Shown: piece after piece, positions 4,245 to 59,767 of the stretch
How the letters are laid out: every line of letters begins with the position of its first letter
Numbering within the stretch: position 1 is the first letter of the stretch
DNA from: Candidatus Latescibacterota bacterium
GTDB taxonomy: Bacteria > Latescibacterota > UBA2968
Length of the DNA stretch: 64,000 nucleotides
Reading direction: 5' to 3'
NCBI GenBank assembly: GCA_965204745.1
Contig: OZ242010.1
Coordinates: forward strand, 4,576,001 to 4,640,000
Position numbers and translations under genes: made by a program
Notes under the pieces: generated by a model
Databases searched by the model: none
Told to the model about the DNA's origin: nothing
Seen by the model: only the letters and a program-made list of their open reading frames with translations

Positions 4245-7200
4245 ATGTTGACTGCCATTTTTCGACGTTGTTCAAACCTGTTTGGAGGCCACCGTTCCCC
4301 TGCGAAAAGAGGGGTTCATGTCGCCCATCCCCGTCTTGGCGTGCCGTTCTATTTCATTGCAAATCAGTCTGTTTTGTTGGCTATGGTCGCGCTGGTTTTG
4401 CTGATGGCATCAGGGCCGGCTTTTGCCCAAACCGACTACGATACGGACAACGACAACCTGATTGACATCAACAACTTGGCGCAACTGAATGCCATTCGCT
4501 GGGACCTCAACGGCGATGGTGCCATAGACGCAAGTGCCTCGACCGCCGATACGACCGCCTACAACACCGCCTTTTCCAACGCCATGTCGGGCATGGGTTG
4601 CCCTGCCACCTGCACCGGCTACGAGCTGATGAGCAACTTAGACTTCGACGAGAACAGTGACAACGAAATCACCGCAGCAGACGCCACCTACTGGAACAGC
4701 GGCACGGGCTGGGATCCCATCGCCCGCGACCCTTCAGGGCAGCGATTCGCAACCACCCTCAAAGGCAACGGCCACACCATTGACAACCTGTTCATCAATC
4801 GCAGCAGCAATAACCAAGGGCTGTTCGCCGCCGTCGAAAATGGCGCCCGCATCGAATCCCTCGGCATAACCAACGCCAGTGTCACCGCAAGTGAGTATGT
4901 CGGCATTCTAACCGCCAACAATTACGGCGAAATCGTCGCCTGTTACACCACCGGCGCGATAAGTGCCTCCAACTTTGCCGGCGGGCTGGCAGGCTTTCAT
5001 CACTCCGACGCCGGCACTGCAGCCACTATAACTACGAGCTACTCCACCGCTTCCGTCACCTCAGGCGCAAATGGCGGAGGGCTTGTGGGGAGGAGCTCCC
5101 AGGTTGCCGGAGCAACAACTACTATAATAAACTCATACTCCACAGGCGCGGTTAGCACCGGCGGAGGGTTAATAGGGAGTAATAACTTAGGCACCACAAC
5201 CGCTAGCTACTGGGACACCTCAACCAGCGGCCGCGCCACCAGCGCGCTCGGAACGGGCTACGCCACCGCCGCCCTCCAGGGCCCCACCGACTACACCGGC
5301 ATCTACACCGCCTGGAACGCCAACATCGACGGACAAGCCGGCAACGACGATCCGTGGGCCTTTGGCACGGCGTATCAGTATCCCGTATTGAAATATGCCA
5401 GCATGGACACCGCGGTGCAGTTCGCTGCCCAGCCCGTGCGTTATGACACGGATAGCGATGGCCTCATCGAGGTTTCGAGCTTGGCACAACTCAATGCCAT
5501 ACGCTGGGATCTCAATGGCGATGGTGCCATAGACACAAGTGCCACGACCAGCGATACGACCGCCTACAACACCGCATTCCCCAGACGCGACTCGCGCTCT
5601 GGTAGCCGGATGGGTTGCCCATCCGGTTGCACCGGCTACGAGTTGATGAACAACCTGGACTTCGACGAGAACAGTGACAACGCAATCACCGCAGCAGACG
5701 CCACCTACTGGAACAGCGGCACGGGCTGGGATCCCATCGCCCGCGACCCTGCAGGGCAACAATTCGAAACCACTCTCAAAGGCAACGGCCACACCATCGA
5801 CAACCTGTTCATCAATCGCAGCAGCAATAACCAAGGGCTGTTCGCCGCCGTCGGAAATGGCGGGCGCATCGAAGCCCTCGGCGTAACCAACGCCAGCGTC
5901 ACCGCAAGTGAGTATGTCGGCATTCTATCCGGCAACAACTACGGCGAAATCGTCGCCTGCTATACCACCGGATCGATAACCGGCACCAACTTTATCGGCG
6001 GGCTGGCAGGCTTGCAGTCCGGCCGCACCGGTGCTCCAGCCACTATAACTACGAGCTACTCCACCGCTTCCGTCACCTCAAACGCAGCGAATGTAGGCGG
6101 GCTTGTGGGGAGGACCTTCCAGGCTGCCGGATCAAGCTCAACCATAATAAACTCATACTCCACAGGCGCGGTTAGCTCCACCGGCGGCGGGTTAATAGGG
6201 AGTAATAACTCAGGCACCGCAACCGCTAGCTACTGGGACACCACAACCAGCGGCCGCGCCACCAGCGCGCTCGGAACGGGCTACGCCACCGCCGACCTCC
6301 AGGCCCCCACCGACTACACCGGCATCTACACCGCCTGGAACGCCAACATCGACGGACAAGCCGGCAACGATGATCCGTGGAACTTTGGCACGGCGTATCA
6401 GTATCCCGTATTGAAATATGACGGCATGGACACCGCGGTGCAGTTCGCTGCCCAGCCCGTGCGTTATGACACGGATAGCGATGGCCTCATCGAGGTTTCG
6501 AGCTTGGCACAACTCAATGCCATGCGCTGGGATCTCAATGGCGATGGTGCCATAGACGCAAGTGCCTCAACCAGCGATACGACCGCCTACAACACCGCAT
6601 TCCCCCGCCGCGACTCGCGCTCTGGTAGCCGGATGGGTTGCCCTTCCGCCTGCACCGGCTACGAGTTGATGAACAACTTGGACTTCAATACCGATGGCAG
6701 TTACCCCAACTGGACGGGCATCGGTGTGGCGGCCAGCGGCGCTGCAACCGCCTTCTCTGCCACCTTTGACGGCAATGACAACACCATTTCCAACTTGTCT
6801 ATCAATTCCAGTACCAGCACCGCCACCGGCGGCGGTTTCATCGGTCTGTTCGGCGATGTCAGCGGCACGATTAGAGATGTGGGCTTGTTGGACGTGAATA
6901 TCACCAACACCCGCACTTCCACCGCCAGTTCAAACAACTTTGGTCGAACCGGTGCCTTGGCGGGTCGCCTCAGTTCCGGCGGCACGGTGCGCGGGAGCTA
7001 CGTTGCCGGCGGCTCCGTAACCCACACCACCAGCAGTACCAGTTTTGGCTCTCTCGGCTGTCTATTGGGCTACTCCGAGGGCACCGTCCGCGACAGCTAC
7101 GCCACCTGCAATGCGACCGGAGCGAACAATAATACGCTTTCTATCGGCGGCCTGATCGGGGAAACCCAAGGTACCGTCGATTCCACCTACGCCACTGGGA

Positions 7201-9527
7201 CGGTCACCAATACCGGTTCCGGTGCCATCACCGCCGGTGGCCTGATCGGTTGGTCCTATGGCCTGGTCAGCGTCAGCTACGCGACCGGGAATGTCACCGG
7301 TGCCGGCGCCGGCAGATTGGGCGGCCTGATCGGGGTGATGGAAGGTTCCAGCTTCGCCAGCTACGCGACCGGGAACGTTTCTGGTAGTGGCACCGGCACC
7401 GGTGGCACCGAAGGAGAAAGCCATAGAATGGGCGGCCTGATCGGGCAGGTAGAACTCGGTAGTGGCGAATACCTGCGCGCCAGCTACGCGACCGGGAACG
7501 TTTCCGGGAGCGGCACCGGCGTCAAAGCGGGCGGTCTGATAGGCCGCGTGACCGTCGCTGACATCAACTCGATAACCGCTGTCTATGCTATCGGTGCTGT
7601 TTCCAACACCAGCACCGGCACCACAGCCACCGGCGGCCTGGCGGCAGAAGAGGTGGGGGCAATCACGTCGATAATAGCCAACAGCTACTGGGACACCCAA
7701 ACCACCGGGCAGGACACCACCGCTGGAGCCAGCAGTGGCACCAGGGGTCAAACCACCAGCGCACTCCAAACCCCCACAGGCTATACCGGCATCTACACCA
7801 CCTGGAACCAGAATCTGGACGGGCAAGCGGGCAACGACGATCCGTGGAACTTTGGCGCGGCGGATCAGTATCCCGTGTTGAAGTATGGCGGCCTGGACGC
7901 CACCGCGCAATTTGCGATGCAACTGGGCATACCGACGGGTGTGGCAGTGATGGCCAATGCGGACACCTTAGTCGTGCGCTGGCGTTCGGTGAGTGGTGCG
8001 ACGGGGTACGCAGTGCAGTGGAAATCCGGCATGCAGAGCTACGCCGCCTCGCGTGAGGCCGCCACCACGGCTACGCTCTACAAGATTCCCAACTTGACGC
8101 CGGGGACGACCTACACAATACGTGTCAGTGCCACCAGGGCCGGTGCTCGCGGCACACCTTCGGTCGAGGTCATGGGCGTCCCAGAGGAGCCCCGAGGGGC
8201 AGGGCAAGAACCGGAACCGGAACCCGAACCGGATCCGGATACGGAGCCGTCCTTCACCGAGGCGGTTGATCCGCAAAGCTATTGGCAAGACAAGGCCATT
8301 GAACCGCTGACCTTGCCCGTGGCAACAGATGGCAATGGGGACCTAACCTACAGCCTGACGGGTCTGCCCGAGGGGTTGACCTTTGACGCCGAGACGCGCA
8401 TCGTGTCTGGCACACCACTCGAGGCGGTAGAAAAAGCGATCTACACCCTGACCGTCACAGATGAAGATGGCGATGAGGCCGCCCTGAGTTTCTTCCTCAC
8501 CGTCGTTGCGAACCTGTTGCCCTCCTTTGGCGATGCGAGTGTGGATACACTGGCCTATACGCGGAAGCAAGAGATCGAATCCTTGACCCTCCCGCAAGTG
8601 ACCGGTGGCGATGCCCCGCTGACCTACGCATTGACCCCCGATCTGCCCGAGGGCTTGCGCTTCGATGGCGCGACCCGGGTGCTGTCTGGCACACCGCTCA
8701 AGGCAACGGACGAAACGACCTATACGCTGACCGCCACAGACAGCGATGGCGACGAGGCCACCCTGATGTTCACCCTCTCTGTGATAGCTGATCCGATGCC
8801 GACCTTCGGCGATACGGCCGTCGCCGCACGGGTCTATATGCAACATCGAGAGATCGATCCCCTGACGCTCCCGCAAGCGACCAGTGGCGATGCCCCGCTG
8901 ACCTACGCGCTGTCCCCGGTTCTGCCCGAGGGCTTGACCTTTGACGCCGAAACGCGAGTGCTGTCTGGCACACCGATCAAGGCCATGGATGAGACGACCT
9001 ACACGTTGACCGCCACAGATGGCAATGGCGATGAAGTGCCTCTCATGTTCACCCTTGAAGTCCCGGACCTGATGCCTGCCTTTGGCGATACGACTATCGC
9101 CGCACAAAGCTATCTCGTCAATCAAGAGATCGCGTCCCTAACGCTCCCGCAAGCGTCCGGTGGCGATGGAATGTTGGTCTATATCCTGCTCCCATTCCTC
9201 CCAGATGGCCTATCGTTTGACCCGACCACGCGCACTCTTTCCGGTATGCCGACCGAGGCGAAGGCCCAGGCGACCTACACCTTGAGCGCGTTAGACGCCG
9301 ATGGCGATGTGGCCTCGCTACCCTTCACGCTCGAAGTCTCACTCCCCTCGCCCGACCTCAATGGCGATGGGGTTGTGAATTTCGCCGACTTCTTGACCTT
9401 TGCCAGCAAGTTCGGCTCGCGACTCGGCCAGGAGCGATACGACGCCCGGTGCGATCTCAATGGCGATAGTCAAATTGACTTTGACGACTTCCTCATCTTC
9501 GCCGCCGACTTTGGCTCATCAGGCTGA
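4245..9527 (+). CDS. Giant secreted/surface protein 1: long leader + signal peptide, three GLUG-like beta-helix modules, FnIII, about five He_PIG/Ig-like repeats, C-terminal EF-hand/dockerin-like pair
   Basis: SD GGGAGG before ATG 4245; signal ...LLMASGPAFA|Q; repeated YDTDxDxLI..LAQLNAIRWDLNGDG and GGLxG motifs; W..VSGATGY.VQWKSG FnIII; LPEGLTFDAETR.LSGTP repeats; DLNGDGVVNFADFLTFASKFG tail. Confidence 0.85.
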   Translation: MLTAIFRRCSNLFGGHRSPAKRGVHVAHPRLGVPFYFIANQSVLLAMVALVLLMASGPAFAQTDYDTDNDNLIDINNLAQLNAIRWDLNGDGAIDASASTADTTAYNTAFSNAMSGMGCPATCTGYELMSNLDFDENSDNEITAADATYWNSGTGWDPIARDPSGQRFATTLKGNGHTIDNLFINRSSNNQGLFAAVENGARIESLGITNASVTASEYVGILTANNYGEIVACYTTGAISASNFAGGLAGFHHSDAGTAATITTSYSTASVTSGANGGGLVGRSSQVAGATTTIINSYSTGAVSTGGGLIGSNNLGTTTASYWDTSTSGRATSALGTGYATAALQGPTDYTGIYTAWNANIDGQAGNDDPWAFGTAYQYPVLKYASMDTAVQFAAQPVRYDTDSDGLIEVSSLAQLNAIRWDLNGDGAIDTSATTSDTTAYNTAFPRRDSRSGSRMGCPSGCTGYELMNNLDFDENSDNAITAADATYWNSGTGWDPIARDPAGQQFETTLKGNGHTIDNLFINRSSNNQGLFAAVGNGGRIEALGVTNASVTASEYVGILSGNNYGEIVACYTTGSITGTNFIGGLAGLQSGRTGAPATITTSYSTASVTSNAANVGGLVGRTFQAAGSSSTIINSYSTGAVSSTGGGLIGSNNSGTATASYWDTTTSGRATSALGTGYATADLQAPTDYTGIYTAWNANIDGQAGNDDPWNFGTAYQYPVLKYDGMDTAVQFAAQPVRYDTDSDGLIEVSSLAQLNAMRWDLNGDGAIDASASTSDTTAYNTAFPRRDSRSGSRMGCPSACTGYELMNNLDFNTDGSYPNWTGIGVAASGAATAFSATFDGNDNTISNLSINSSTSTATGGGFIGLFGDVSGTIRDVGLLDVNITNTRTSTASSNNFGRTGALAGRLSSGGTVRGSYVAGGSVTHTTSSTSFGSLGCLLGYSEGTVRDSYATCNATGANNNTLSIGGLIGETQGTVDSTYATGTVTNTGSGAITAGGLIGWSYGLVSVSYATGNVTGAGAGRLGGLIGVMEGSSFASYATGNVSGSGTGTGGTEGESHRMGGLIGQVELGSGEYLRASYATGNVSGSGTGVKAGGLIGRVTVADINSITAVYAIGAVSNTSTGTTATGGLAAEEVGAITSIIANSYWDTQTTGQDTTAGASSGTRGQTTSALQTPTGYTGIYTTWNQNLDGQAGNDDPWNFGAADQYPVLKYGGLDATAQFAMQLGIPTGVAVMANADTLVVRWRSVSGATGYAVQWKSGMQSYAASREAATTATLYKIPNLTPGTTYTIRVSATRAGARGTPSVEVMGVPEEPRGAGQEPEPEPEPDPDTEPSFTEAVDPQSYWQDKAIEPLTLPVATDGNGDLTYSLTGLPEGLTFDAETRIVSGTPLEAVEKAIYTLTVTDEDGDEAALSFFLTVVANLLPSFGDASVDTLAYTRKQEIESLTLPQVTGGDAPLTYALTPDLPEGLRFDGATRVLSGTPLKATDETTYTLTATDSDGDEATLMFTLSVIADPMPTFGDTAVAARVYMQHREIDPLTLPQATSGDAPLTYALSPVLPEGLTFDAETRVLSGTPIKAMDETTYTLTATDGNGDEVPLMFTLEVPDLMPAFGDTTIAAQSYLVNQEIASLTLPQASGGDGMLVYILLPFLPDGLSFDPTTRTLSGMPTEAKAQATYTLSALDADGDVASLPFTLEVSLPSPDLNGDGVVNFADFLTFASKFGSRLGQERYDARCDLNGDSQIDFDDFLIFAADFGSSG

Positions 9528-10432: not shown

Positions 10433-11452
10433 TCATCCCCATGGTTTCAAAACGACCTTTGCACACGCGCCTGTGGTTTGCAATTCCCAGGCTTTTTGAA
10501 CGTCGTCCAGTGAAAACATGTGTGAAATCAGCCGGTCCAATTTGTCTGCATTTGCGCGGACGACCTGCATCAACTTGGGCATGTCTTGCAAATTGTAATG
10601 CCATGATCCGACGAGCGTAATCCCTTTGCGGATCATATCTCGGCTGATACGCAGGGGCGTGTCTTCCCCGCATTCGCCCACAAATGCCACTTGCCCGCGC
10701 CGTCTCACCGCGTCGATGCACAGCCGATGCGCGGGCACTGCGCCCGAGCAATCCACAGCCGCATCCACGCCGACCCCGTCCGTCAAGTCCATAACTCGTT
10801 GCAACGCCTGATCATCTGCGGGATCGATCACCTCGTCCGCGCCCAATGCAAGGGCTTTCTCGCGCCGCCACGGATTGATATCCACGGCGATCACGCGCGC
10901 GCCTCGGTGCTTGCCATTGATCACGCCCCCAAGGCCCACAGGCCCTAAGCCCGTCACCATCAACGTATCAAACGCCCCTATCCCCATGCGCTGTGCCGCG
11001 CCAAAGGTGGGGCCTAAACCGCAACAGGCCATCCCCCCGTGTGCGTAGGAAACATCATCCGGCAGTTTGGGCAACAACCAGTCCGGCTTTAACAGATATT
11101 GCGCCATCGTGGCTCGGCCCTCGGCACTACCCGTAAATTGGTCAAACGCGACATTGTGCTGGCAATGGATGTAATCGCCACGGATGCACAGGGCACAGAC
11201 CCCGCACGGATATTGCGGCATCACCGCCACGCGGTCGCCCACCGCCACGCGCACGGGTTGGGCAGTTTCGACCACTTCCCCTGCGGCTTCGTGCCCCAAC
11301 GAGGTCGTCGCCCTGCCATTCGCAAAGCCCTTGTACTCGGTACACATCGGCGCGGCGTGAACTTTGACCAACACCCAATTCTCTTTTGGCTTCGGCTCTG
11401 GGACGTCGATCACACCGCCCTCGCGCTCCCCAAAAATTGCAGCGACTCTCAT
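10433..11452 (-). CDS. Zinc-binding alcohol dehydrogenase (MDR superfamily)
   Basis: GHEAAGEVVE motif, CGVCALC..GDYIHC structural Zn site, GLGPVG Rossmann motif. Confidence 0.9.
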   Translation of the reverse strand: MRVAAIFGEREGGVIDVPEPKPKENWVLVKVHAAPMCTEYKGFANGRATTSLGHEAAGEVVETAQPVRVAVGDRVAVMPQYPCGVCALCIRGDYIHCQHNVAFDQFTGSAEGRATMAQYLLKPDWLLPKLPDDVSYAHGGMACCGLGPTFGAAQRMGIGAFDTLMVTGLGPVGLGGVINGKHRGARVIAVDINPWRREKALALGADEVIDPADDQALQRVMDLTDGVGVDAAVDCSGAVPAHRLCIDAVRRRGQVAFVGECGEDTPLRISRDMIRKGITLVGSWHYNLQDMPKLMQVVRANADKLDRLISHMFSLDDVQKAWELQTTGACAKVVLKPWG

Positions 11453-11599
11453 TTGCCACCTCCCAAATAAAGTTGACAGGGTTCGGACATCGGTATTCAT
11501 TCAGACGAATCAGGCGTAATGGGCGGGGACTGATAACTGACAACTGCCTCTCCCCTCTTGCCTCTCCCCTCTTGTATCTTGGAAGTAAGGGTTAATTAG

Positions 11600-11790
11600 G
11601 AGTTGCGCCCTCGTATCGAGATAAGCCATCTTGATGCCCGGCTCGGGGAAGGCCGGCCCCTCTTGAAGGCGATGACCTTGTAGGTAAGATAGGCCCCCCG
11701 ACCGCCGGGTCTATGCCGAAGAGTATCTAAGCCCCTTGAGGCTGCATATACAAGACCGGTAGACTTGGCGTCAATGGTCGGGACGCGACC
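11600..11790 (+). ncRNA. Predicted IS110 bridge RNA (target- and donor-binding loops); ends approximate
   Basis: Two stem-internal loop-stem domains with guides CCCCTCT (11657-63) and AGGTAAG (11682-88) matching the target, and AGAGTATCT (11720-28) and ATACAAG (11748-54) matching the donor. Confidence 0.8.
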
Positions 11791-11839
11791 CCGAGCGCGC
11801 ACCAGATCCCTTACAACCCCCTCATCACAGGAGGCCCCC

Positions 11840-12847
11840 ATGTCGAAATCTCACCCCGCTTTTGCCGGCATTGATGTCAGTGCCCGCACGTTGTCCGTTG
11901 CCCTGTCCAGACCCGGACAAGCTGTCATGCAAGCGACCTTTGCCAATGATCCCCAAGCGCATAAGCGGTTGCTGAAGTGGCTCACGAAGGGCGGGCACAT
12001 GGTCTCTGTGTGCCTCGAAGCGACCGGGCTTTACAGTTTGGGGGTGGCCTTGGCCTTGCATCGGCATCGCCACACAAAGGTCATGGTCGTCAATCCCAAA
12101 GCGATGAGCAAGTACGCCCAAGCCTGCATGCAACGGGCGAAGACGGATGCGAAGGATGCGTTGTTGATCCTCGACTATGCCGAGCGCATGCCTTTTGTGC
12201 CTTGGCAAGCGCCGAGCGAGCAACGGCTTCAACTGCAAGCCCTCACCAGACGCATTGACCAACTCAAGCAGGAGATCATCCGCGAACAGAGCCGCAACCA
12301 CGCGCAGAGCTACCACATCCGCAGCACACGTCTCATCGCACGCGATATTCAGGTGAATATTCGACACTTCAAACGCCGGATTGCATACTTGGAAAGCCAA
12401 GCCCTCGATCTCGTTTTGCACGATGAGCCCCTCAAGCGTGCCTACCAACGCCTCTGCTCGACGCCTGGCATCGCGCAAACGAGTGCCTTGCGGCTCTTGG
12501 CCGAGTTGACCCTTTTGCCAGAGGAGATGCAACCGCCCCAGTGGGTCGCACATGCAGGCCTGGATCCCAAACCCAAACAATCCGGAACCGCCAATCCACA
12601 AAGACGCATCTCGAAAACCGGGAATAAGTACCTCCGCCATGCCCTCTATATGCCTGCCTGGGTGGCCATCAGACACGAAGGCCATGTCAAAGCCTTCTAT
12701 GACCAACTCATCGCCCGCGGCAAGAAACCTTTGCAGGCTATCGTTGCGGTGATGCGAAAGTTGCTCCATTCGATCTGGGGCATGTTGCGCCATGACCAAG
12801 ATTTTGAGGGCGAAAAATTCTATCGAATCACCCCGAAAACCCCTTGA
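11840..12847 (+). CDS. IS110 family DEDD recombinase/transposase
   Basis: GIDVS, LEATG and AKTDAKDA RuvC-like DEDD motifs; PGI and QSGT..RRISKTGN.YLR..LY C-terminal domain; SD AGGAGG. Confidence 0.95.
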   Translation: MSKSHPAFAGIDVSARTLSVALSRPGQAVMQATFANDPQAHKRLLKWLTKGGHMVSVCLEATGLYSLGVALALHRHRHTKVMVVNPKAMSKYAQACMQRAKTDAKDALLILDYAERMPFVPWQAPSEQRLQLQALTRRIDQLKQEIIREQSRNHAQSYHIRSTRLIARDIQVNIRHFKRRIAYLESQALDLVLHDEPLKRAYQRLCSTPGIAQTSALRLLAELTLLPEEMQPPQWVAHAGLDPKPKQSGTANPQRRISKTGNKYLRHALYMPAWVAIRHEGHVKAFYDQLIARGKKPLQAIVAVMRKLLHSIWGMLRHDQDFEGEKFYRITPKTP

Positions 12848-12910
12848 CCTTTTAAGAGAGTATCTTACCTTTTTGCCTTTCACTTCTCGAAAAAACAAGG
12901 GAAGCCCAAC

Positions 12911-13993
12911 ATGAAAAAACCCATCCGCATGGCGATAGTTGGCGTGGGGCGCATTGGCGTGTTTCACGCTCGGCACGTTCAAGAACTCGCCCGCGAGACC
13001 GGGCAGTGCGAACTCGTGGCCGTGGCGGACACTTATGCTGACACGGCTGTGCGCGTCGTTGCCGAACTTCAGGCCGATCAGGAAGTCGAAATTCGCGCTT
13101 TCAAGAACGTGTTTGACCTCGCGGCGGCGAACCTCATTGACGCGGCGTTTATCGCGTCTCGCACCGAAGACCATGAACGCGATGCGCGAACCCTCATCGA
13201 CGCGGGTTGCCGCGTGCTCTTGGAAAAACCATTGACCGATTCGCTCGCATCTGCCCGAGCATTTATCGCGGACCTCAACCGCGATGCCACGCGCAAGAAC
13301 GCGCTGATGCTGGCTTTTATGCGCCGCTATGACCCCCCGTTGCTCAAAGTCAAAGCGCTGATCGACCAAAACGCCATTGGCAAAATTTTCAAAATCGTCT
13401 CGGTTCTCGAAGACCCGATTCCACCGCCCGAGGGTTACAACAGCGCGGGCTTGCTCAGCGACATGGCGGTTCACAACTGCGACGAAATCCTCTGGCTACT
13501 CGGTTGCCCCATGCCCGAATACGTGGCCGCGTTTGGGTCCAATCTTTACAACAGCACCATCAGCACGGTTCCAGAAGATTACGACGACGCGTTTTTGCAG
13601 ATGTGGTTCCCCGGGCACTTGATCGGTCAAGTCTCGGTCAGCCGCAATCACGTCGCGGGATATCGCAACGCCACTTGGGTCTATGGCGATCAAGGGGTGA
13701 TTCACGTCGGCCACTTTCGGGAAAACCCGCTCGCGGTCACAGTCGAAGCCTACGGTCGCAATGGCATCATCCACGAGGAAACCATCGCCCTGCGCGACTA
13801 CGGCTCGGATGTGCCCGTGTTCATCACCCGATTCGGCGAATCCTACAAAAACGAACTCGCGGATTTCATCACCCACTGCATCGCCGACACCCCATTCAGC
13901 GTCACGCACGAAGACGGGTACAAAGCCATGAAAATCGCCATGATCGGCGGCGAATCAATACGTCCGAAAGAGGCCGCGCAAAAGATAGCGTAA
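12911..13993 (+). CDS. Gfo/Idh/MocA family oxidoreductase (inositol 2-dehydrogenase-like)
   Basis: IVGVGRIG, VLLEKPL, AFMRRYDP and DMAVHNCD motifs. Confidence 0.88.
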   Translation: MKKPIRMAIVGVGRIGVFHARHVQELARETGQCELVAVADTYADTAVRVVAELQADQEVEIRAFKNVFDLAAANLIDAAFIASRTEDHERDARTLIDAGCRVLLEKPLTDSLASARAFIADLNRDATRKNALMLAFMRRYDPPLLKVKALIDQNAIGKIFKIVSVLEDPIPPPEGYNSAGLLSDMAVHNCDEILWLLGCPMPEYVAAFGSNLYNSTISTVPEDYDDAFLQMWFPGHLIGQVSVSRNHVAGYRNATWVYGDQGVIHVGHFRENPLAVTVEAYGRNGIIHEETIALRDYGSDVPVFITRFGESYKNELADFITHCIADTPFSVTHEDGYKAMKIAMIGGESIRPKEAAQKIA

Positions 13994-20690: not shown

Positions 20691-21025
20691 TCGGGGGGTA
20701 GCGCGTAGGTCAGCGGTTCATCGCCACTGGTCGCTTGCGGGAGCGTCAGGGACGCGATCTCTTGATTGACGAGATAGGGCTGTGCGGCGATGGTCGTATC
20801 GCCAAAGGTGGGCATCATATCCGGGACTTCAAGGGTGAACATGAGATGCACTTCATCGCCATTGCTGTCCGTGGTGGTCAGCGTGTAGGTCGGCTCGTCC
20901 ATGGCCTTGATCGGTGTGCCGGACTGTGCGAAGGTCGGCATCGGATCGGCTGTCACAGAGAGGATGAACATGAGATGCACTTCATCGCCATCTTCATCTG
21001 TGGCGGTCAGGGAACAGGCTTTCAT
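20672..21025 (-). pseudogene. Orphan He_PIG/Ig-repeat fragment closely similar to the C-terminal repeats of giant protein 1
   Basis: SGTPIKAMDEPTYTLTTTDSNGDEVHLMFTLEVPDMMPTFGDTTIAAQPYLVNQEIASLTLPQA versus gene 1 SGTPIKAMDETTYTLTATDGNGDEVPLMFTLEVPDLMPAFGDTTIAAQSYLVNQEIASLTLPQA; internally deleted and cut by a MITE. Confidence 0.8.
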
Positions 21026-24000
21026 TGGAAGTGGGAGTCGGGATGGAGGCTTCGAATGTAGGGTTCAATGGCTTGAGCGGTCGTGCGCGTAGCAGTTGGC
21101 TCGATGACGTTCCCTCTGAGGAGGGCCTCGTTCCGGAAGAAGAGGACGTATCGAATGATCAGGATTATATCCGAGAACAGCCTCACATCGCCATCGCCAT
21201 CCACATCGAGAATGTTCTGATTGACCAACGTGTCGAGGTAGGGTTCAATTTCTTGAGCGGTCTTGCGCGTGGCAGTTGGCTCGATGACGTTCCCTCTGAG
21301 GAGGGCCTCTTCCCGGAAGAAGAGGACGTATCGAATGACCAGGATTATATCCGAGAACAATCTCACCCGGCCATCGCCATCCACATCCAAGTTGGCACTC
21401 GGTGTTTCGTCATCGGTCAGGGTCAGGGTCACGGGTGCGGGTGCGGTGATGCCTTGGGCGTTGTTTGCGGTTGCAGACACGCTGACCGTCTTCTCGTCTG
21501 CCCGGTCGTCGTTGTCCGCTGCGGTGATCGTCACGGTGCCCGTGCTCGTTGTGGTCGTCGCCGCGATGATCAGGGTGTCTGCACTTGATAGCGTGAAGTC
21601 GCTCGCAGTCGCAGGGGACACAGGCGTAGCAGAGACCGTGATCGTCGTGATCGCGCTCGATGGATGCGATAGGGTCGCCGTGATCGTGGAAACCTCGGCG
21701 TTTTCCGAGATGGACGAGGGCATCAGCACCAACGTCACGGTCGGCGCATCTTCATCGTCGGTCGTCGTCACTGGAACATCCTCGTCCATAAGGGCGTCGT
21801 AGTTGGCATCGCCGCTTGATAGGGCGAGTCGCACCGCCCAGGTGACGTCCCCGTCGTCGATGGTGTCGTCCTGCCCGGTCACGGTCACGGTTTGTGCCGT
21901 GTTATAGCTCGCCGGCGCGAAGGTCAGCATCGCAGGCTCAACCCGCCCTTCGCTCGGGTCTTGGCTCGTCACAGAAATCGTCACCGCCGCCGAGGGTTGC
22001 GTCAGCAGGGCCACCGTGAAGGTCGCCGAGCCGCCGGCCTCTGTGGCCTGCCCGGTTATCGTGCTGATGTCCAAGCCGAAATCGTTATCGCGGTTGATCA
22101 TGTACACGCTGACAGGGGAGAGCGCGTCATAGTTGGTGTCCTGCGTATCCGTCTGGTTCACCGAAAGGGTGACCGTATAGTTCTGGTTGCCATCGACGTT
22201 GTTGGCGGGGGCATCGTCCTGTCCGGTCACGGTCACGGTTTGTGCCGTGTTCCATGTTGTCGATGAGAAGGTCAGCACCGAGGGCGATACAGTACCTTCC
22301 GTCGTGTCTGAACTGACCACCGAGAGTGCCACGTTCCCCGTCGGCTCGGAGGCGAGCGTGACCGTGAAGGTCTCTGCCCTGCCCGACTCTGTCGTGTGGA
22401 GCCTGACCGTCGTCGTGGTCATCGCCGACACCTCAATCGCCGCCTCGTCGTCATCGGTGATCGTCAGCGACGCAGCCTGCACGGTGCCAGCGCCGTGGTC
22501 GTTCTCCACAGCGGCGGTCTGCACCATCACCGCGTTGTCTGATGCGTCTATGTCGTTGTCCACGGCGGTGAGTGCCACCGTGTCCGTCGCGTTCGCCATT
22601 TGCCCGGCCGCGATGGTGATCGTCGAATCCGAACCCACCGTGTAGGCATTCGCCACCGGGCGCACCGTGATCGTCGTCGCCGCGCTCGATGGGTGTGTCA
22701 GCGTCGCGCTCACCGTGCTCACGCCGCCGGCCTCCGAGATGGACGCGGGCGACAGCATTAGTGTCACGTCCGGCGCGGCGTCATCGTCTGTGATTGTCAA
22801 AGCCGTGCCGGTCACACTGCCTGCGCCTTGGTCGTTGTTCGCCACAACGGACACGGTCACGTCGCGATTAGGCGCATCGGTCGCGTTGTCCACGGCCGTG
22901 ATCTCTACTGTGTCCGTCGCGTTCGCCGTGCTCCCGGCCGCGATGGTGATCGTCGAATCCGACCCCACCGTGTAAGCACCCGCCACCGGGCGCACCGTGA
23001 TTGTCGTGATCGCGCTCGACCGATGCGACAGCGTCGCCGTGATCGTCGAAACACCGCCGGTCTCTGCAATCGACGCGGGCGACAGCGTCAGTGCCACATC
23101 CGGCGCGGCCTCATCGTCTGTGATCGTCAGGGTCACGGCAGACGATAGCGACGCCCCATTGCCACCTGCCACCGTTGCAGACACGGTCACGCGCTTGTCC
23201 GGCGCATCGGTCGTGTCGTTCACCGAGGTGATCGTCACGGCGCCTGTGCTCGTCGTCACATTCGCCGCGAAGGTCAGCGTGGTCGCGGTCGATAGCGTAA
23301 AATCGCCCGCAACCGCAGGGGCCACCTCGGTCGCTGAAACCGTGACCGTCGTCGCCACGGTTGCAACGCGATCTAGCGTCGCCGTGATCGTGGAAATCTG
23401 GGCATTCTCCGTAATTGACGCCGGAGTCAAAACCAATGTCACCTGCGCCACTTCGTCATCGATAATCGTCAGCGTCGCATCAGTGACCGATCCCGTGCCT
23501 ATGCTGTTGCCCACCGTGCTCGACACGGTCACCGTCTTGTTCCCCGAAGATATGCTGTTGTCCACCGTCGTGATCGTCACGGTGCCCGTGCTCGTCGTTG
23601 CGCCCGCCGCGACGGTCAGCGTGGCCGGCGTACTCAGCGTGTAGTCGCCCAGAACCGCAGGCGACACAGCCGACGCTGAAACCGTGATCGTCGTCGCCGC
23701 GCTCGACGTGTGAGACAGGGTCGCGGTCACCGTCGAAATCGCGCCGTTCTCTGAAATCGACGCAGGAGACAAAACCATCGTCACGTCCGGCGCAGCGTCG
23801 TCGTCCGTCAGCGTCAAAGCCGCACCGGTCACACTGCCCGCGCCTTGGGTGTTGCTCATCACACCTGGCACGGTCACGTCGCGATTAGGCGCGTCTTGGG
23901 TATTGTTCACCGCTGTGATGACCACCGTGTCCGACGCGTTAATCGTGTCCCCGGCTGCGATGGTGATCGTCGTATCCGAACCCACCGTGTAAGCACCCGT

Positions 24001-27000
24001 CAATGGGCGCACCGTGATCGTCGTCGCCGCGCTCGATGGACGCGATAGCGACGCCGTGACCGTCGAAACCGCGCCGTTCTCCGAAATCGACGCCGGTGAC
24101 GCCGCCAACGTCGCTGTCGGTGCAGGGTCGTCGTCCTCCAGCGTCAAAGTCGCACCAGTTACACTGCCCGCGCCTTGGGCGTTGCCCGCCACAACGGACA
24201 CGGTCACATCGCGATTAGGCTCGTCTTGGGTGTTGTTCACCGCTGTGATGACCACCGTGTCCGTCGCGTTCGCAGTGCTCCCGGCCGCGATGGTGATCGT
24301 CGTATCCGCCCCCACCGTGTAAGCACCCGCCACCGGGCGCACCGTGATCGTCGTCGCCGCGCTCAACGGGTGTGCCAGCGTCGCGGTCACGGTGCTCATC
24401 CCGCCGCTTTCCGAGATCGACGAGGGCGTCAGTGCCAACGTCACTCTCGCGGGTTGGAACTGAAATTGCACGGTGGTGTCCATGCCGGCATACTTCAAGG
24501 CCGGATACTGATCCATCGCGCCAAAGGTCCACGGATCGTCGTTGCCGGCTTGTCCGTCGAGGTTGGCGTTCCAGTTGTAGTAGGTGTCGTTGGCGGTGGC
24601 ACCGTAGGTAGTAGGGCTTAGGAGATCGCTAGTCGTCTTGCCGACAACGCCGCTACCGCCTGCGCTGCTGGTCTGACCGCTGGTTGAGGTGTCCCAGTGG
24701 CTATCGGTCACTGTACCAGCCGAACTGCCCACCAAACCGCCTTTCGTGCCGGCACCCGTGACCCGTCCTATCGCGTAGCTGGCGGTCACGCTACCGCCGC
24801 TCGCGATTTGACCCACCAACCCGCCGCCCACCGCGCTGCTGTGTCCCGCGAACACAGAGCCCAGCGCGTAAGACGCCACCACCTCGGTCTGATCGGTCAG
24901 CCAACCCACCAAACCGCCGGCCAATCCGTCACTCGTCACAGATGCAGGAACGCGCACAGAGACGAGCGCGTAGCTGCTCACAATGCGGTTGGTGCCCGAA
25001 GTGCGATAAGACCGACCAACCAAACCACCCACACCCCACCGCGACCCCGAAACGCGACCCGTCACATAACACGACGAGATGGTGCCCCCACCACCTTGAT
25101 TACCGGCCAGACCACCCACGCGGTCAGCACCGGTCACATTCACATTCAACAACCCCAATCCCGAAACATCGCCATCAACCGCATGGAACAATCCTGTATT
25201 ATGCCGAGACCCCCGGTTGATGAACAGGTGGGAGATCGTCTTGTTGTTGCCTTTGAACGTGCCGCCGTAAGGCCCCACAGGGTTCCAGCCCGCGCCGCCA
25301 TTCCAGTAGGTGGCGTCTGCTTGGGTGATCGCGCCGTCGTTGTTCTCGTCAAAGTCCAAGTTGTTGAGCAGTTCGTAGCCGATGCAACCTGTGGAAGGGC
25401 AACCCTTGCTCGCTGACAAGTTCCCGTTGGGAAAGGCGGCGTTGTAGGTCATGGCATCACTATCGGCGACGACCCCATCGCCATTGAGATCCCAGCGCAT
25501 GGCATGCAGTTGGGCCAAGGTCGAGACCTCGAGGAGGCCATCGCTATCCGTGTCGTAATGCACGGGTTGGGTAGCGAACTGCGCCGTGGTGTCCAGGCCG
25601 GCAAACTTCAAGGCCGGATACTGATTCGTCGTGCCAAAGGTCCAGGGATCATCATTGTTGGCCCCCGAAGCATCTATGGTCAGATCGTCCCAGTTGGCAT
25701 AGATGCCACTCGCAGACGTGACCGATTGTAAGTCGGCAGTCAGTTTGCCCTCCGGCGCAACAGTATCGCTATCATCGGCAATGTCGCTTGTTTGCGTGTC
25801 CCAGTAGCTATCGGTCACTGTACCTGAGTTTTCCGCCAGCCCATGCTTGTGCAGGCAGGCCCCCGTTACTGAGCCTGTTGAGTAGCTCGACGCTATCGTC
25901 GCACCCGGACCATTGGCACCTACCAACCCGCCGCCAGTGGCCCACGGCCCCGACTGATTGCACACCACAGACGCCGTGGCGTAACTCGCCACGATGTACG
26001 ACCCCCTCTGAGCGGCGCCCACCAACCCGCCGACATTGGTGTTCGCCGTGACCGACCCCGTGACGTAACTCGCCGCGATCCGACCCTTGTTCAGACCCAC
26101 CAGCGCGCCCACCGTGCCCTGACCCGTATTGATCACCGCGTTGACTAACCCCAAAGAGCGGATGTGGGTAGTGGTGTCCGTGCTTGCGAAAAATCCCGAA
26201 AAGTTGACGTAGCGGTTGATGTACAGGTGGGAGATCGTCTTGCCGTTGCCCTCAAATGTGGCGGTGTATGGGGAGGTGTTGCTACTGCCGATGGGTGCCC
26301 AGCCCGCGCCGCCATTCCAGTAGGTAGTGTCTGCTGAGGTGATCGCGCCGTCGTTGTTCTCGTCAAAGTCCAAGTTGTTGAGTAGTTCGTAGCCAGTGCA
26401 ACCGGAAGGACACCCCATGCCCGAGAAGGCGGCGGGAAAGGCGGCGTTGTAGTTCATGGTATCAGTACTGGCGACGACCCCATCGCCGTTGAGATCCCAG
26501 CGTATGGCATTGAGTTGCGCCAAGGAGGTGATGTCAATCAGGCGGTCGTTGTCCGTGTCGTAGTCAGTGCCCGTCCGGCCCTGGGCGGACAGGGAATGAC
26601 CACCATACTTCAGTACCGGGTACTCGCTGCTGGTGCCGAAGTACCACGGATCGTCTCTGCCTTGGCTATCGCCGGTGTTGGTATTGCCATCCAAGTTCAG
26701 GTTCCAGTTGGCGTAGATGCCAGTATAGCCAGTGGGACTTTGGAGATTGCTGGTGCTCTGGCCGCTACCTCTTACCACAGACCCTGTAGTTTTTGAGGAG
26801 TCCCAGTAGCTGTCGGACGCGTTACCTCCGTCTTCGTCCCCGACTAATCCGCCGGGGTTACCGGTGGTGGTGAAGCTACCTGCGAAGTACGAATTTTTTA
26901 TAGTGGCATCGCCCAACAAGTTGCCTACCAAACCGCCGACTTGGCTATGGTTGGAGATGGATACAACAGATGCATGGGAGTAGCTAGTTGAGATACTTCC

Positions 27001-27630: not shown

Positions 27631-27830
27631 TTTGTCGCTCCTCCCGAGGGGGGGGGGGGGGGGGGGGGGTACACTGTACTGATCAGCCTAACAGATTGTT
27701 TTGCAATGAAATAGAACCACACGCCAAGACGAGAATCGGCGACATGAACGCCCGTTTTCGCGGTGGGACAAGCGGTAAAAACATAGGGCCAAATGATGTT
27801 CAAACAGCGGCTGAAAATGGTGGGAATCAT
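27627..27830 (-). CDS. Leader ORF homologous to the N-terminus of giant protein 1, out of frame with giant protein 2 across a homopolymer tract
   Basis: AAGGAGG SD before ATG 27830; MIPTIFSRC...AKTGVHVADSRLGVWFYFIAKQSV versus gene 1 MLTAIFRRC...AKRGVHVAHPRLGVPFYFIANQSV. Confidence 0.65.
   Translation of the reverse strand: MIPTIFSRCLNIIWPYVFTACPTAKTGVHVADSRLGVWFYFIAKQSVRLISTVYPPPPPPPSGGATK
27648..27669. repeat. G22 homopolymer (C22 on the coding strand), candidate slipped-strand switch
   Basis: Counted directly: 22 consecutive G. Confidence 0.9.
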
Positions 27831-29465: not shown

Positions 29466-29470
29466 AATTA

Positions 29471-58282: not shown

Positions 58283-58340
58283 ACGCAAGAGGCAAGAGGT
58301 AAGAGGCGAGAGGCGTAAGAGGTAAGAGGCAAGAGGCAAG
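58283..58340. repeat. (AAGAGGY)n heptamer array used as the IS110 insertion site
   Basis: gcaagaggcaagaggtaagaggcgagaggcgtaagaggtaagaggcaagaggcaag. Confidence 0.8.
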
Positions 58341-58355
58341 ATACTCTCTTAAAGG

Positions 58356-59363
58356 TCAAGGGGATTGCGGGGCGATTCGATAGAATTTCTCGCCCTCAAA
58401 ATCTTGGTCATGCCGCAACATGCCCCAGATTGAATGGAGCAACTTTCGCATCACCGCAACGATAGCCTGCAAAGGTTTCTTGCCGCGGGCAATGAGTTGG
58501 TCATAGAAGGCTTTGACATGGACTTCGTGTCTGATGGCCACCCAGGCAGGCATATAGAGGGCATGGCGGAGGTACTTATTCCCGGTTTTCGAGATGCGTC
58601 TTTGTGGGTTGGCGGTTCCGGATTGTTTGGGTTTGGGATCCAGGCCTGCATGTGCGACCCACTGGGGCGGTTGCATCTCCTCAGGCAAAAGGGTCAACTC
58701 GGCCAAGAGCCGCAAGGCGCTCGTTTGTGCGATGCCAGGCGTCGAGCAGAGGCGTTGGTAGGCGCGCTTGAGGGTCTCATCGTGCAAAACGAGATCGAGG
58801 GCTTGGTCTTCCAAGTATGCAATCCGGCGTTTGAGGTGTCGAATATTCACCTGAATATCGCGTGCGATGCGCCGTGTGCTCAGGATGTGGTAGCTTTGCG
58901 CGTGGTTGCGGCTCTGTTCACTGATGATCACCTGCTTGAGTTGGTCAATGCGTCTGGTGAGGGCTTGCAGTTGAAGCCGTTGCTCACTCGGCGCTTGCCA
59001 AGGCACAAACGGCATGCGCTCGGCATAATCCATGATCAACAACGCATCCTTCGCATCCGTCTTGGCTCGTTGCATGCGGGCTTGACCGTACTTGCTCATC
59101 GCTTTGGGATTGACGACCATGACCTTTGTGTGGCGATGCCGATGCAAGGCCAAGGCCACCCCCAAGCTGTAAAGCCCGGTCGCTTCGAGGCACACAGAGA
59201 CCATGTGCCCGCCCTTGGTGAGCCACTTCAGCAACCGCTTATGGGCTTGGGGATCATTGGCAAAGGTCGCTTGCATGACAGCTTGTCCGGGTCTGGACAG
59301 GGCAACAGACAACGTGCGGGCACTGACATCAATGCCGGCGAAAGCGGGTTGAGATTTCGACAT
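58356..59363 (-). CDS. IS110 family DEDD recombinase/transposase
   Basis: 335 aa, near-identical to 11840-12847. Confidence 0.95.
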   Translation of the reverse strand: MSKSQPAFAGIDVSARTLSVALSRPGQAVMQATFANDPQAHKRLLKWLTKGGHMVSVCLEATGLYSLGVALALHRHRHTKVMVVNPKAMSKYGQARMQRAKTDAKDALLIMDYAERMPFVPWQAPSEQRLQLQALTRRIDQLKQVIISEQSRNHAQSYHILSTRRIARDIQVNIRHLKRRIAYLEDQALDLVLHDETLKRAYQRLCSTPGIAQTSALRLLAELTLLPEEMQPPQWVAHAGLDPKPKQSGTANPQRRISKTGNKYLRHALYMPAWVAIRHEVHVKAFYDQLIARGKKPLQAIVAVMRKLLHSIWGMLRHDQDFEGEKFYRIAPQSP

Positions 59364-59409
59364 GGGGGCCTCCTGTGATGAGGGGTTGTAAGGGGTCTGG
59401 TGTGCGCTC

Positions 59410-59600
59410 GAGTTCGATCCCGACCATTGACGCCAAGTCTACCGGTCTTGTATATGCAGCCTCAAGGGACTTAGATACTCTTCGGCATAGACCCGGCGGT
59501 CGGGGGGCCTATCTTACCTACAAGGTCATCGCCTTCAAGAGGGGCCGGCCTTCCCCGAGCCGGGCATCAAGATGGCTTATCTCGATACGAGGGCGCAACT
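59410..59600 (-). ncRNA. Predicted bridge RNA of IS110 copy 2; ends approximate
   Basis: Guides at 59538-44, 59513-19, 59473-81 and 59447-53 (reverse complement) are identical to copy 1. Confidence 0.78.
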
Positions 59601-59767
59601 CCTAATTAACCCTTACTTCCAAGATACAAGAGGGGATATACAAGAAGAAATACGGAGGGACGCGACGAGAGGCGAGGGCGAATAGCGACTTGCCTCTCGT
59701 CTTTTTTGCTTGCTTTTTTTTGGGGAACTTGTTTAAGTTTTGGGCTTTGGAAAGGGCGGGAAAGCCC

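Follow-up and report, generated by a model that had tools for sequence, protein, structure and literature searches.

A probable IS621-like insertion sequence of a Latescibacterota bacterium with predicted bridge RNA guides matching a heptamer tandem repeat

Insertion sequence and genomic copies

The window, a stretch of 64,000 nucleotides from the genome of an uncultured Latescibacterota bacterium (assembly GCA_965204745.1, contig OZ242010.1), contains two copies of what is very probably an IS110-group insertion sequence, intact, active in the recent past and IS621-like in its working. Copy 1 interrupts an array of heptamer units and carries a recombinase gene behind a long non-coding left end (Table 1). 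The junctions of copy 1 read CTCCCCT-CT-TGTAT on the left and AGAGTAT-CT-TACCT on the right. Copy 2 is flanked by ATCCCCT-CT and CT-TGCCT, and its array continues with CTTGCCT and CTTACCT units. Together, the two copies reproduce the CT core, the donor AGAGTAT-CT-TGTAT and both pre-insertion targets that a preliminary description had proposed from the letters alone. All its sequence statements hold, positions included.

The genome has 52 full-length copies with flanks differing between copies. Across 1,295 bases, 30 of the 52 are 100% identical to copy 1, and CT is present at both junctions of every copy. Terminal inverted repeats are absent, a 2-bp core stands at both junctions and insertion is site-specific, as is typical of the IS110 group. 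The non-coding ends, 267 nt on the left versus 16 nt on the right, agree with the IS110-group arrangement, which is described as a long left and a short right end, the reverse of IS1111 (PMC11208160). Contigs of four DNA runs over 11100-13300 showed neither a circle junction nor an empty-site allele; these contigs break at the element ends and are unsuited to this search. One low-depth DNA contig has a joint skipping 315 nt within the recombinase gene.

The recombinase matches the Pfam families PF01548 (DEDD_Tnp_IS110; 1.2e-24, 87 bits, cut-off 29) and PF02371 (Transposase_20; 4.8e-20, 72 bits, cut-off 21.3). Among solved structures, ISCro4 (PDB 9T56) is the best match (E 7.6e-40, residues 7-326), a likeness of the transposase sequence only, followed by IS621 (E 5.8e-36). 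A HMMER alignment to chain 8wt6_A, with a numbering offset of 2, places D12, E60, D103, D106 and S248 on the catalytic D11, E60, D102, D105 and S241 of IS621. The 335-aa frame and the D-E-D-D-S residues are kept in 51 of 52 copies. We consider the matches to the two solved recombinases the decisive sequence evidence, and the element a reasonable candidate for a new programmable recombinase orthologue.

Table 1. Features of the insertion sequence and its target array; positions are those of the window.
Feature	Position	Strand	Basis or remark
CTGATAA CTGACAA units just upstream of the target array	11530-43	+	read directly
Heptamer units CTCCCCT CTTGCCT CTCCCCT, left part of target array	11550..11570	+	read directly
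IS110-group insertion sequence, copy 1	11571..12865	+	1,293 bp plus duplicated CT core; limits from 52 genomic copies
CT core, left copy	11571..11572	+	read at junction
TATCTT, candidate -10 box of a promoter that would span the RE-LE junction (right end joined to left end) after excision as a circle	11575..11580	+	geometry and IS621 analogy
5' stem-loop of predicted bridge RNA	11614..11638	+	single-sequence fold; absent from consensus fold, weakly supported
Target-binding loop module, predicted	11644..11700	+	folding; two pairs with compensatory changes
Left target guide CCCCTCT (5 target bases and core)	11657..11663	+	once in left end; covariation
Right target guide AGGTAAG, antisense of CT-TACCT	11682..11688	+	once in left end; covariation
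AU, target-loop handshake guide, complementary to donor positions 7 and 6	11689..11690	+	row comparison
Donor-binding loop module, predicted	11704..11769	+	folding; four pairs with compensatory changes
Left donor guide AGAGTATCT, same sense as right end 12857-65	11720..11728	+	once in left end
Right donor guide AUAUACAAG, antisense of CT-TGTAT, with 9 nt covering 7 bases if two are passed over	11746..11754	+	orthologue comparison
AC, donor-loop handshake guide; A pairs with target position 7 (T)	11755..11756	+	row comparison
AGGAGG ribosome-binding site	11830..11835	+	read directly
Recombinase gene, 335 aa, DEDD RuvC-like and Tnp domain with catalytic Ser	11840..12847	+	Pfam and PDB matches
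TTGACC, candidate -35 box in right end	12844..12849	+	geometry and conservation
Short right end, 16 nt, terminating in left donor half AGAGTAT	12848..12863	+	read directly
CT core, right copy	12864..12865	+	read at junction
TACCT, right half of interrupted target unit	12866..12870	+	read directly
Copy 2, 96% subfamily, guides same as copy 1	58339..59630	-	96% identical to copy 1

Predicted bridge RNA

The left end folds into two modules, each with a guide pair in an internal loop. The target module has an outer stem (11644-48/11696-700), an AA bulge (11649-50), a GGCC/GGCC stem (11651-54/11692-95) and an inner hairpin (11666-69/11676-79). The donor module consists of outer stems (11704-11/11762-69), a further stem (11714-18/11757-61) and an inner hairpin (11730-33/11740-43). 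The stems named in the preliminary description were recovered by folding of the single sequence and by RNAalifold on 21 related sequences. With z = -1.5, and 18 of 200 shuffles folding equally well, the folding energy of the single sequence does not stand out; the support for the fold comes from the comparison between sequences. Across the related sequences, 98.3% of the cells are paired in the given structure, versus 31-56% in controls with a slid register, and 6 of 36 pairs changed on both sides. None of 500 shuffles reached the observed value in four of five structure measures and 25 of 500 did so in the fifth, a significance that is overstated because the related sequences derive from few lineages. 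An Rfam 15 scan of 11000-13500 (E up to 1) had no match, and the left end gave none by distant-mode blastn in 5,426 genomes of E. coli.

All four guide words occur where the preliminary description had located them. When the left end was shuffled 200,000 times, their frequencies were 0.022, 0.012, 0.0006 and 0.010; the four were never found together, and the product of the frequencies is about 1.5e-9. One reading was refined. The word ATACAAG at 11748 occurs once in the 267-nt left end, and the right donor guide is better taken as the 9-nt ATATACAAG. The sequence ATAGACAAG, present in orthologues, pairs with CT-TGTAT only by skipping two bases. A discontiguous right donor guide, 9 nt on 7 bases, is described for IS621 (PMC11208160). 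In the main class of copies, the left target guide matches 5 of 7 left-target positions and GG faces CT. The base after this guide, T11664, may pair with target position 10.

In the IS621 handshake, as described, the dinucleotide that follows each right guide on its 3' side pairs with the non-cognate DNA at positions 7-6 (PMC11208158). The corresponding dinucleotide of the target loop pairs with donor position 7 in all 14 distinct rows, and AU is changed to GU in elements L072 and L074, where the donor ends in AC, a compensatory change. For the donor-loop dinucleotide, 11 of 14 rows have its first base paired with target position 7, by Watson-Crick pairing in eight and by wobble in three.

Covariation of guides with targets and donor

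Guides and insertion sites change together. The main class of 45 copies combines the guides CCCCTCT/AGGTAAG with sites CCCCT-CT-TRCCT. Subfamily v5 has TCCCTCTC/AGGTGAG and a site TCCCT-CT-CACCT. The 89% subfamily of five copies has CGCCTCT or TGCCTCT with AAGTAAG, and four of the five are found at C(G/A)CCT or TACCT-CT-TACTT; the right flank of the fifth, TACCT, is a mismatch to its guide. One related genome has the guide AGAAAAG and the flank CT-TTTCT. In a second, CTCGCCTCT, a full 9-nt left guide, and GGGAG belong to the site CTCGCCT-CT-CCCGT. A Gemmatimonadota contig pairs CCGTTAG with CT-AACGG, and a phylum-wide model search added ACGTTAG with AACGT and GCGTGAG with CACGC. Each variant of the right target guide (AGGTGAG, AAGTAAG, AGAAAAG, (A)GGGAG, CCGTTAG, ACGTTAG and GCGTGAG) occurs with a matching right flank. 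The donor covaries as well: element L072 has a changed left donor guide, GGAAAACC, and a right end GAAAAC-CT. At least 10 guide sets have matching flanks. Guides unlike those of copy 1, with flanks altered to match, occur in diverged local subfamilies, in the two related genomes and in about ten elements at a greater distance within the phylum. In a class-by-class matrix of guides and targets, scored in a fixed register, the larger classes peak on the diagonal.

The left end could instead act mainly as a 5' leader or antisense regulator, as reported for ISPpu9, with the protein selecting the site and the guide-like words being coincidental. A structured left end directly upstream of the recombinase gene would suit such a function, and regulation by small RNAs and by leader structure has been described for an IS110-family element (PMC8450116). 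We regard this as extremely improbable. A purely regulatory leader would not predict joint changes of guides and flanks, observed in at least 10 independent sets, or of donor guide and donor end, as in L072; the chance of finding the four guide words is about 1e-9. The left end may still be regulatory in addition to guiding.

Target sites in heptamer arrays

The sites support the proposal of the preliminary description that the guides are programmed against the heptamer repeat of the genome. Forty-seven of the 52 copies are located in, or at the edge of, CTYNCST arrays of at least three units, and all array-borne copies share register 0, in which the core coincides with the dinucleotide that opens a unit. 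Altered guides occur at correspondingly altered unit junctions. In the main class, the left flank is CCCCT in 41 of 45 copies and the right flank is TRCCT in 41 of 45.

Occupied sites were compared with all sites by the right half of the target. The perfect site, CCCCT-CT-TACCT, is occupied in 20 of 25 cases, TGCCT in 17 of 82 and CCCGT in 2 of 10; TGCGT (0 of 38) and TACGT (0 of 18) are empty. Occupancy is 80% for a perfect match and 21% where target position 11 pairs through one G-U wobble, and sites with a mismatch at position 13 were never used. Site use tracks the strength of guide pairing.

The preliminary description also saw the repeat as a safe harbour. Forty-nine of the 52 reconstructed empty sites are not inside any open frame of at least 750 nt, by a crude test made without gene calls, and the harbour is plausible. 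A simple stop-to-stop test, in which 25 of 52 sites were spanned, was refined: frames of neighbouring genes extend upstream through the stop-free repeat. With the unit junction as target, hundreds of mostly intergenic arrays would offer many equivalent, probably harmless landing sites, which would account for the 52 copies. The accessible parts of the literature on heptamer or tandem-repeat targets of IS110 elements and on insertion sequences of Latescibacteria contained nothing on this element or its target.

The element might also have made or spread the arrays, by recombination between CT cores 7 bp apart or by footprints. Every unit starts with the core CT, and the left end of the element starts with CTTGTAT, which resembles a heptamer unit and precedes a CT. 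Windows of four CTYNCST units occur 1,283 times in this genome and 1,196 times in G007, the other genome with a heptamer-targeting element, versus 0-20 times in the remaining 19 genomes of the genus. However, arrays of the unrelated heptamer CTGACAA, not recognised by the guides, are inflated to the same degree here (515 windows, versus 0 in G007 and 53 in G013), so array growth does not need the element. CT-type arrays are present in low numbers in 15 further genomes of the genus (any match: 17 of 21), and the model search detected no bridge RNA in the 17 further genus genomes that it covered. Genome G028 has the element and only 3 array windows. By rpoB, the three genomes with the element group in one subclade (92% and 91% identity versus at most 84%), and the co-occurrence of element and arrays therefore amounts to about one evolutionary event. 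Window counts, CTGACAA inflation and the rpoB subclade make arrays as a product of the element very unlikely, and we keep to the reading of the arrays as the target.

Copies at sites not fitting their own guides

Eight of the 45 main-class copies occupy sites that fit their guides incompletely: four have TACCT-CT on the left, and two CT-CCCGT, one CT-TACTT and one CT-TGCCC on the right. For copy v6, 3 of the 12 positions of its own site are mismatched. A few copies are found where the guides of another copy fit, which could result from cross-programming in trans, from gene conversion or from half-match insertion.

Placement in trans, through target loops that belong to other copies, would extend the guided insertion described above rather than replace it. 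We consider it possible and somewhat unlikely. Two main-class copies (G000:1927368 and 5150716) sit at CCCCT-CT-CCCGT, a site that fits the guide pair CCCCTCT/ACGGGAG. This pair is carried by a recombinase-less derivative of 192 bp (G000:2972659-2972850), and ACGGGAG is also found on a degraded copy at 845328. The site of v6, TCCCT-CT-CACCT, fits the guides of v5 at all positions. For IS621, the two loops of one synaptic complex are reported to come from two different bridge RNA molecules (PMC11208158), and the bridge RNA is reported to work in trans (PMC11208160). On the other hand, only three copies are concerned, and the 192-bp derivative is without the 3' half of the donor-loop stem. The target-loop tract of v6 is identical to subfamily v8 on a v5-like backbone, so that a gene-conversion patch after insertion explains v6 equally well. 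Half-match, i.e. one-sided, insertion as reported for IS621 (10.64898/2026.08.31.748434) would explain CCCGT and TACCT-CT without a second guide.

The donor and the donor loop are common to all subfamilies of this genome. The loops of an IS621 complex can originate from different RNAs, and any target loop could thus direct any copy, the loop of the 192-bp derivative included. On this basis we tentatively suggest, as a doubtful extension, that the roughly 60 bridge-RNA genes of the genome act as a community with a shared donor and multiple guides, the target loops of which have drifted to different unit junctions. Such a community would account for the copies whose sites fit the guides of another copy. 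If true, this would be natural reprogramming in trans, with guide-only satellites widening the target range of an element.

Comparison with known systems and proposed mechanism

In kind, the element belongs to the already known RNA-guided IS110/IS621 type, of which it is an unusually clean new member. With IS621 of E. coli (PDB 8WT6; PMC11208160, PMC11208158) it shares the two-domain recombinase with D-E-D-D-S, the CT core and the long left and short right end. Compared by published description, the RNAs share target and donor loops, the strand rule (left guides in top-strand sense, right guides antisense), the split 9-on-7 guide and the handshake guides. The IS621 layout proposed earlier, with a stem-loop, two loops, the strand rule and the core in all four guides, corresponds to these descriptions. 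The likeness of the donor to that of IS621 was confirmed for positions 6-14: A-T-C-T-T-G-T-A-T, as read from the base pairs given in PMC11208158, is identical in both. In IS621, the right end is described as holding a -35 box and the left end a -10 box; the boxes found here are candidates.

Both elements target a repeated intergenic sequence. The target of IS621 is the REP palindrome, whereas the element described here uses the junction between units of a tandemly repeated heptamer. It lives in an uncultured Latescibacterota bacterium, its main class has an effective left target guide of 5+2(+1) nt instead of 7+2, and 52 copies reside together with several guide variants. At the nucleotide level, the search of the E. 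coli genomes detected no similarity.

ISPpu9 and ISPpu10 of Pseudomonas putida are described as multi-copy IS110-group elements with one conserved intergenic repeat as target (PMC12288879, 10.64898/2026.03.19.712850). Their targets are REP-type palindromes, in which structure is reported to aid recognition, in contrast to the non-palindromic polypyrimidine tandem repeat of this study. IS1111 elements with their seekRNA belong to the same family and follow the same RNA-guided principle; their RNA is described in a long right end, together with subterminal inverted repeats of 7-17 bp (PMC11208160). With a right end of 16 nt and its predicted RNA on the left side, the element falls outside the IS1111 subgroup.

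For this element, we infer transcription, circle formation, RNA binding and catalysis as follows. Excision as a circle would join the right and left ends. The joined ends may form a sigma-70-type promoter from TTGACC and TATCTT with a spacing of 17-18 nt (18 nt for copy 1 and 17 nt for copy 2). This candidate promoter is suggested by geometry and by analogy to IS621; both boxes are conserved in relatives, with TTGACC or TTGAAC in the right ends of orthologues, and the -10 box reads TATGTT in the 89% subfamily. From this promoter, the left end would be transcribed into a bridge RNA of roughly 190 nt. The donor-binding loop would recognise the element's own junction AGAGTAT-CT-TGTAT, and the target-binding loop CCCCT-CT-TACCT, with TGCCT accepted through the G-U wobble. 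The DEDD/Ser recombinase would then swap strands at the CT core.

Significance

The mechanism is known and the value of this element lies in the data set. One complete genome provides 52 insertions dated by identity and several co-resident guide variants, and its census of occupied and empty sites reads as a natural specificity screen. Latescibacterota have, to our knowledge, not been sampled for such tools. The orthologue is compact, with 335 aa and an RNA predicted at roughly 190 nt. The copies at misfitting sites offer a concrete natural case for guide sharing in trans that can be tested. The covarying subfamilies suggest that small guide changes let a bridge-RNA element follow a fast-evolving tandem repeat.

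Element and recombinase

Copy 1 is a genuine IS110-group element with a predicted bridge RNA of the IS621 type (IS621 being the E. coli comparison element), and belongs to a known kind. It has CT at either boundary. With the CT core set off by hyphens, the left junction reads CTCCCCT-CT-TGTAT and the right junction AGAGTAT-CT-TACCT. The product of its only gene matched both IS110-family recombinase domains of Pfam, PF01548 (1.2e-24) and PF02371 (4.8e-20), and, among solved structures, the recombinases of ISCro4 (E 7.6e-40) and IS621 (E 5.8e-36). In a HMMER alignment with the IS621 chain, whose numbering is offset by two, D12, E60, D103, D106 and S248 were aligned to the IS621 catalytic residues D11, E60, D102, D105 and S241 (PMC11208158).

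Features of the element and of its surroundings in the window
Feature	Position	Remarks
Copy 1	11571-12865	plus strand
Candidate -10	11575-80	TATCTT, left end
Left target guide word	11657 (start)	once in left end
Right target guide word	11682 (start)	once in left end
Target-loop handshake	11689-90	AU, complementary to donor positions 7-6 (T, A)
Left donor guide word	11720 (start)	once in left end
Right donor guide word	11748 (start)	once in left end
Right donor guide	11746-54	ATATACAAG, compatible with contiguous and discontiguous readings
Recombinase gene	11840-12847	preceded by AGGAGG; 335 aa
Candidate -35	12844-49	TTGACC, right end
Copy 2	58339-59630	inverted; 96% identity to copy 1
Heptamer arrays (examples)	11530-11572; 58250-58338	
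~93-nt repeat	31448-31540; 45515-45607; 48264-48356	three copies, 70-95% identical
Long internal repeats	4400-9300; 20700-29700	periods ~279, 330, 1,005-1,023 bp
12-bp tandem repeat	2794-2996	AATGCCCTGCTC, about 12 or more copies

The host genome consists of a single contig of 5.48 Mb. Blastn with the element yielded 77 segments: 52 full-length copies, the others being fragments and internally deleted copies. Thirty full-length copies are 100% identical, seven share 99.0-99.9% and eight 96.1%; lower identities are found in the subfamilies v5 (95.8%, one copy) and v6 (94.8%, one copy) and in five copies at 88.5-89.1%. The full frame and all five catalytic residues are present in 51 of 52 copies, the other being cut to 262 aa. 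Judged by these identities and intact frames, the element is young and very probably active.

One tandem pair (G000:C1:1121591-1124182, in the window's own genome) consists of head-to-tail copies of the 96% and 100% classes with one heptamer between them (TACCT plus CT); the second copy entered the unit adjoining the right end of the first. In sequencing run X3, contig depth over window positions 11100-13300 was ~74 on both flanks versus ~2,600-2,700 on single contigs within the element, in line with dozens of element copies per genome there, although the depths are not copy numbers. Sequencing runs labelled sponge metagenome contained at least half of the element's words.

Bridge RNA

The preliminary description had read four guide words in the left end of copy 1 and seen an IS621-type bridge RNA element in it. 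This reading is correct. All four words occur at their assigned positions, and 0 of 200,000 shuffles had them together (product of single frequencies ~1.5e-9). In the fold, as described, the two words of each pair face each other across an internal loop that is bordered by an outer stem on one side and by a small inner hairpin on the other. The single-sequence folding energy is unremarkable (z = -1.5). For a comparison of the fold, two complete Latescibacterota MAGs supplied 7 and 18 related loci at 76-84% protein identity, and a Gemmatimonadota contig added a relative at 48%. RNAalifold recovered both modules from the alignment of 21 distinct left ends. Scored without the pairs inside the guide loops, the structure showed pairing in 98.3% of 753 cells and both-sided changes at 6 of 36 pairs. 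The observed value was reached by 0 of 500 shuffles for four of five measures and by 25 of 500 for the fifth, and sliding the partners by 1-3 columns reduced pairing to 31-56%; these controls overstate independence because the aligned left ends are drawn from few lineages.

Finer features of IS621 also recur. Its right donor guide has nine RNA bases in discontiguous pairing with seven donor bases (PMC11208160). The corresponding ATAGACAAG of the orthologues pairs with CT-TGTAT solely in this 9-on-7 mode. Handshake guides consist of the two bases that follow a right guide on its 3' side and pair with the other DNA at positions 7-6 (PMC11208158). In all 14 distinct rows, the first base of the target-loop handshake forms a pair with donor position 7, and it is a G where the donor has a C (elements L072 and L074); for the donor loop, a pair between the handshake base and target position 7 is present in 11 of the 14. 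The likeness to the IS621 donor stated in the preliminary description is supported for nine bases: IS621 donor positions 6-14, as read off the base pairs in PMC11208158, are ATCTTGTAT, identical to those of this element. With the element ends joined at the core, TTGACC and TATCTT would have a spacing of 18 nt (copy 1) or 17 nt (copy 2), and TTGACC or TTGAAC is present in all relatives. The arrangement matches the junction promoter described for IS621 (PMC11208160) and suggests a putative promoter across the RE-LE junction. Contigs of the sequencing runs, which are not expected to reveal a circle, contained no circle junction.

Covariation of guides and targets

The main evidence is the joint change of the predicted guides and their targets. 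The main class (45 copies) has guides CCCCTCT/AGGTAAG, a left flank CCCCT in 41 copies and a right flank TACCT in 24 or TGCCT in 17. Subfamily v5 combines TCCCTCTC/AGGTGAG with the site TCCCT-CT-CACCT. The five copies at 89% have CGCCTCT or TGCCTCT as left and AAGTAAG as right guide; on the left they are flanked by CGCCT, CACCT or TACCT, the guide G pairing with bottom-strand T, and on the right four of them by TACTT. The first related genome has AGAAAAG for CT-TTTCT. In the second, the left guide CTCGCCTCT has the full 9 nt and goes with CTCGCCT-CT, and GGGAG goes with CT-CCC; the Gemmatimonadota element has CCGTTAG for CT-AACGG. In a matrix of guide classes and target sets in fixed register, the diagonal is highest for the larger classes.

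When 151 Latescibacterota genomes were searched with a covariance model made from the left-end alignment, the RNA was detected in 13 of them, the window's genome included. Distant matches have widely different target loops, again fitting their own flanks: ACGTTAG with CT-AACGT in two different elements, GCGTGAG with CT-CACGC, and AAATAGTCT with AAATAGT-CT. In one distant element the donor guide GGAAAACC is accompanied by the right end GAAAAC-CT.

Target sites

The genome contains 629 arrays of at least three CT[CT]NC[CGT][TC] units, 25 kb in total; a shuffled megabase contained none. After in silico removal of the element from each copy, 47 of 52 sites were located in or at the edge of an array of 3-20 units, where the core is always the first two bases of a heptamer unit. 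The other five are degenerate arrays or a tandem element pair. Open frames of at least 750 nt were sought over the reconstructed empty sites. None crosses 27 of the 52 sites, 22 are crossed only by the outermost part of a frame, and three are internal to frames about 750-820 nt long. As a rule, the end crossings arise where the frame of the following gene runs on upstream without a stop; an example is copy 1, whose neighbour gene begins 46 nt downstream. By these frames, arrays and insertions appear mostly intergenic, often directly upstream of genes, and the 'safe harbour' of the preliminary description is a fair, if putative, term.

Among sites with the left half CCCCT-CT, 20 of 25 with right half TACCT are occupied, 17 of 82 with TGCCT and 2 of 10 with CCCGT. 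TGCGT (0/38), TACGT (0/18) and CCCCT (0/45) are free of insertions. Perfect sites are nearly exhausted. The profile indicates tolerance for a U-G wobble at position 11 and none for a mismatch at position 13.

Many CT-type arrays in the left flanks of element copies are immediately preceded by a recurrent motif (…AGCGCGGTGGCCTT), e.g., at G000:1942497, 4382965 and 2713403, which points to a conserved element as the place where arrays begin. In places, CTGACAA units are directly ahead of this motif. The ~93-nt repeat of the window begins with AAAGGCAC units and has a palindromic core; at G000:950704 an element fragment adjoins sequence of this type. The two stretches with long internal repeats partly mirror each other on opposite strands and are probably giant repeat-protein genes.

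Mismatched copies

Some copies lie at sites that do not fit their own guides. In the main class, the left flank of four copies is TACCT and not CCCCT, two copies are at CT-CCCGT, and single ones at CT-TACTT and CT-TGCCC. The single-copy v6 (G000:C1:602780-604074, locus L058) has guides TGCCTCT/AAGTAAG, mismatched at 3 of 12 positions of its site TCCCT-CT-CACCT. Such copies may have been placed by target loops of other copies acting in trans, although this is less likely than not. Within a single complex, the two loops are reported to belong to different RNA molecules (PMC11208158), so cross-programming is mechanistically expected. With an nhmmer profile, 60 stretches resembling the bridge RNA were found in the genome. 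They include a derivative of 192 bp in a long array (G000:C1:2972659-2972850), in which left-end bases 1-185 are joined to the last right-end bases; it lacks the recombinase gene and keeps the 5' stem-loop, the target loop and most of the donor loop. Its guides, CCCCTCT with ACGGGAG instead of the usual AGGTAAG, fit CCCCT-CT-CCCGT, the site of two main-class copies, and the v6 site fits the v5 guides. However, the v6 target-loop tract is that of v8, the 89% subfamily, and a gene-conversion patch could explain it; moreover, IS621 has been reported to make half-match insertions (10.64898/2026.08.31.748434).

In a related genome, short inserts starting with the first ten bases of the element (CTTGTATCTT), followed by a GC-rich hairpin, are found upstream of L055 and in the right flanks of L044, L050 and L053, in the same arrays and at junctions of the same type. 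These inserts could be remnants of left ends or else small non-autonomous relatives.

Origin of arrays and element

Four-unit CT-type windows number 1,283 in the window's genome and 1,196 in G007, 3 in G028, and 0-20 in G013 and others of the genus. CTGACAA x3 windows, with up to 1 mismatch, number 515 in the window's genome, 0 in G007, 53 in G013 and 0-5 in G028 and others. Within the genus, CT-type inflation is thus confined to the window's genome and G007, and CTGACAA inflation to the window's genome and, more weakly, G013. The CTGACAA arrays are not read by the guides. G007 carries a heptamer-targeting element and G028 an element with a non-heptamer target; neither genome is independent of the relative loci used in the comparison. 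Their rpoB genes are 92% (G007) and 91% (G028) identical to that of the window's genome, others 84% or less; therefore, the co-occurrence of arrays and element counts as about one event. These counts point to array inflation that is lineage-specific and not tied to the element. It is simpler to assume that the guides of the element became adapted to a repeat abundant in the host. Within its known kind, the element stands out by the number of its copies, by having a tandem repeat as target and by the internally consistent variation of guides and targets.
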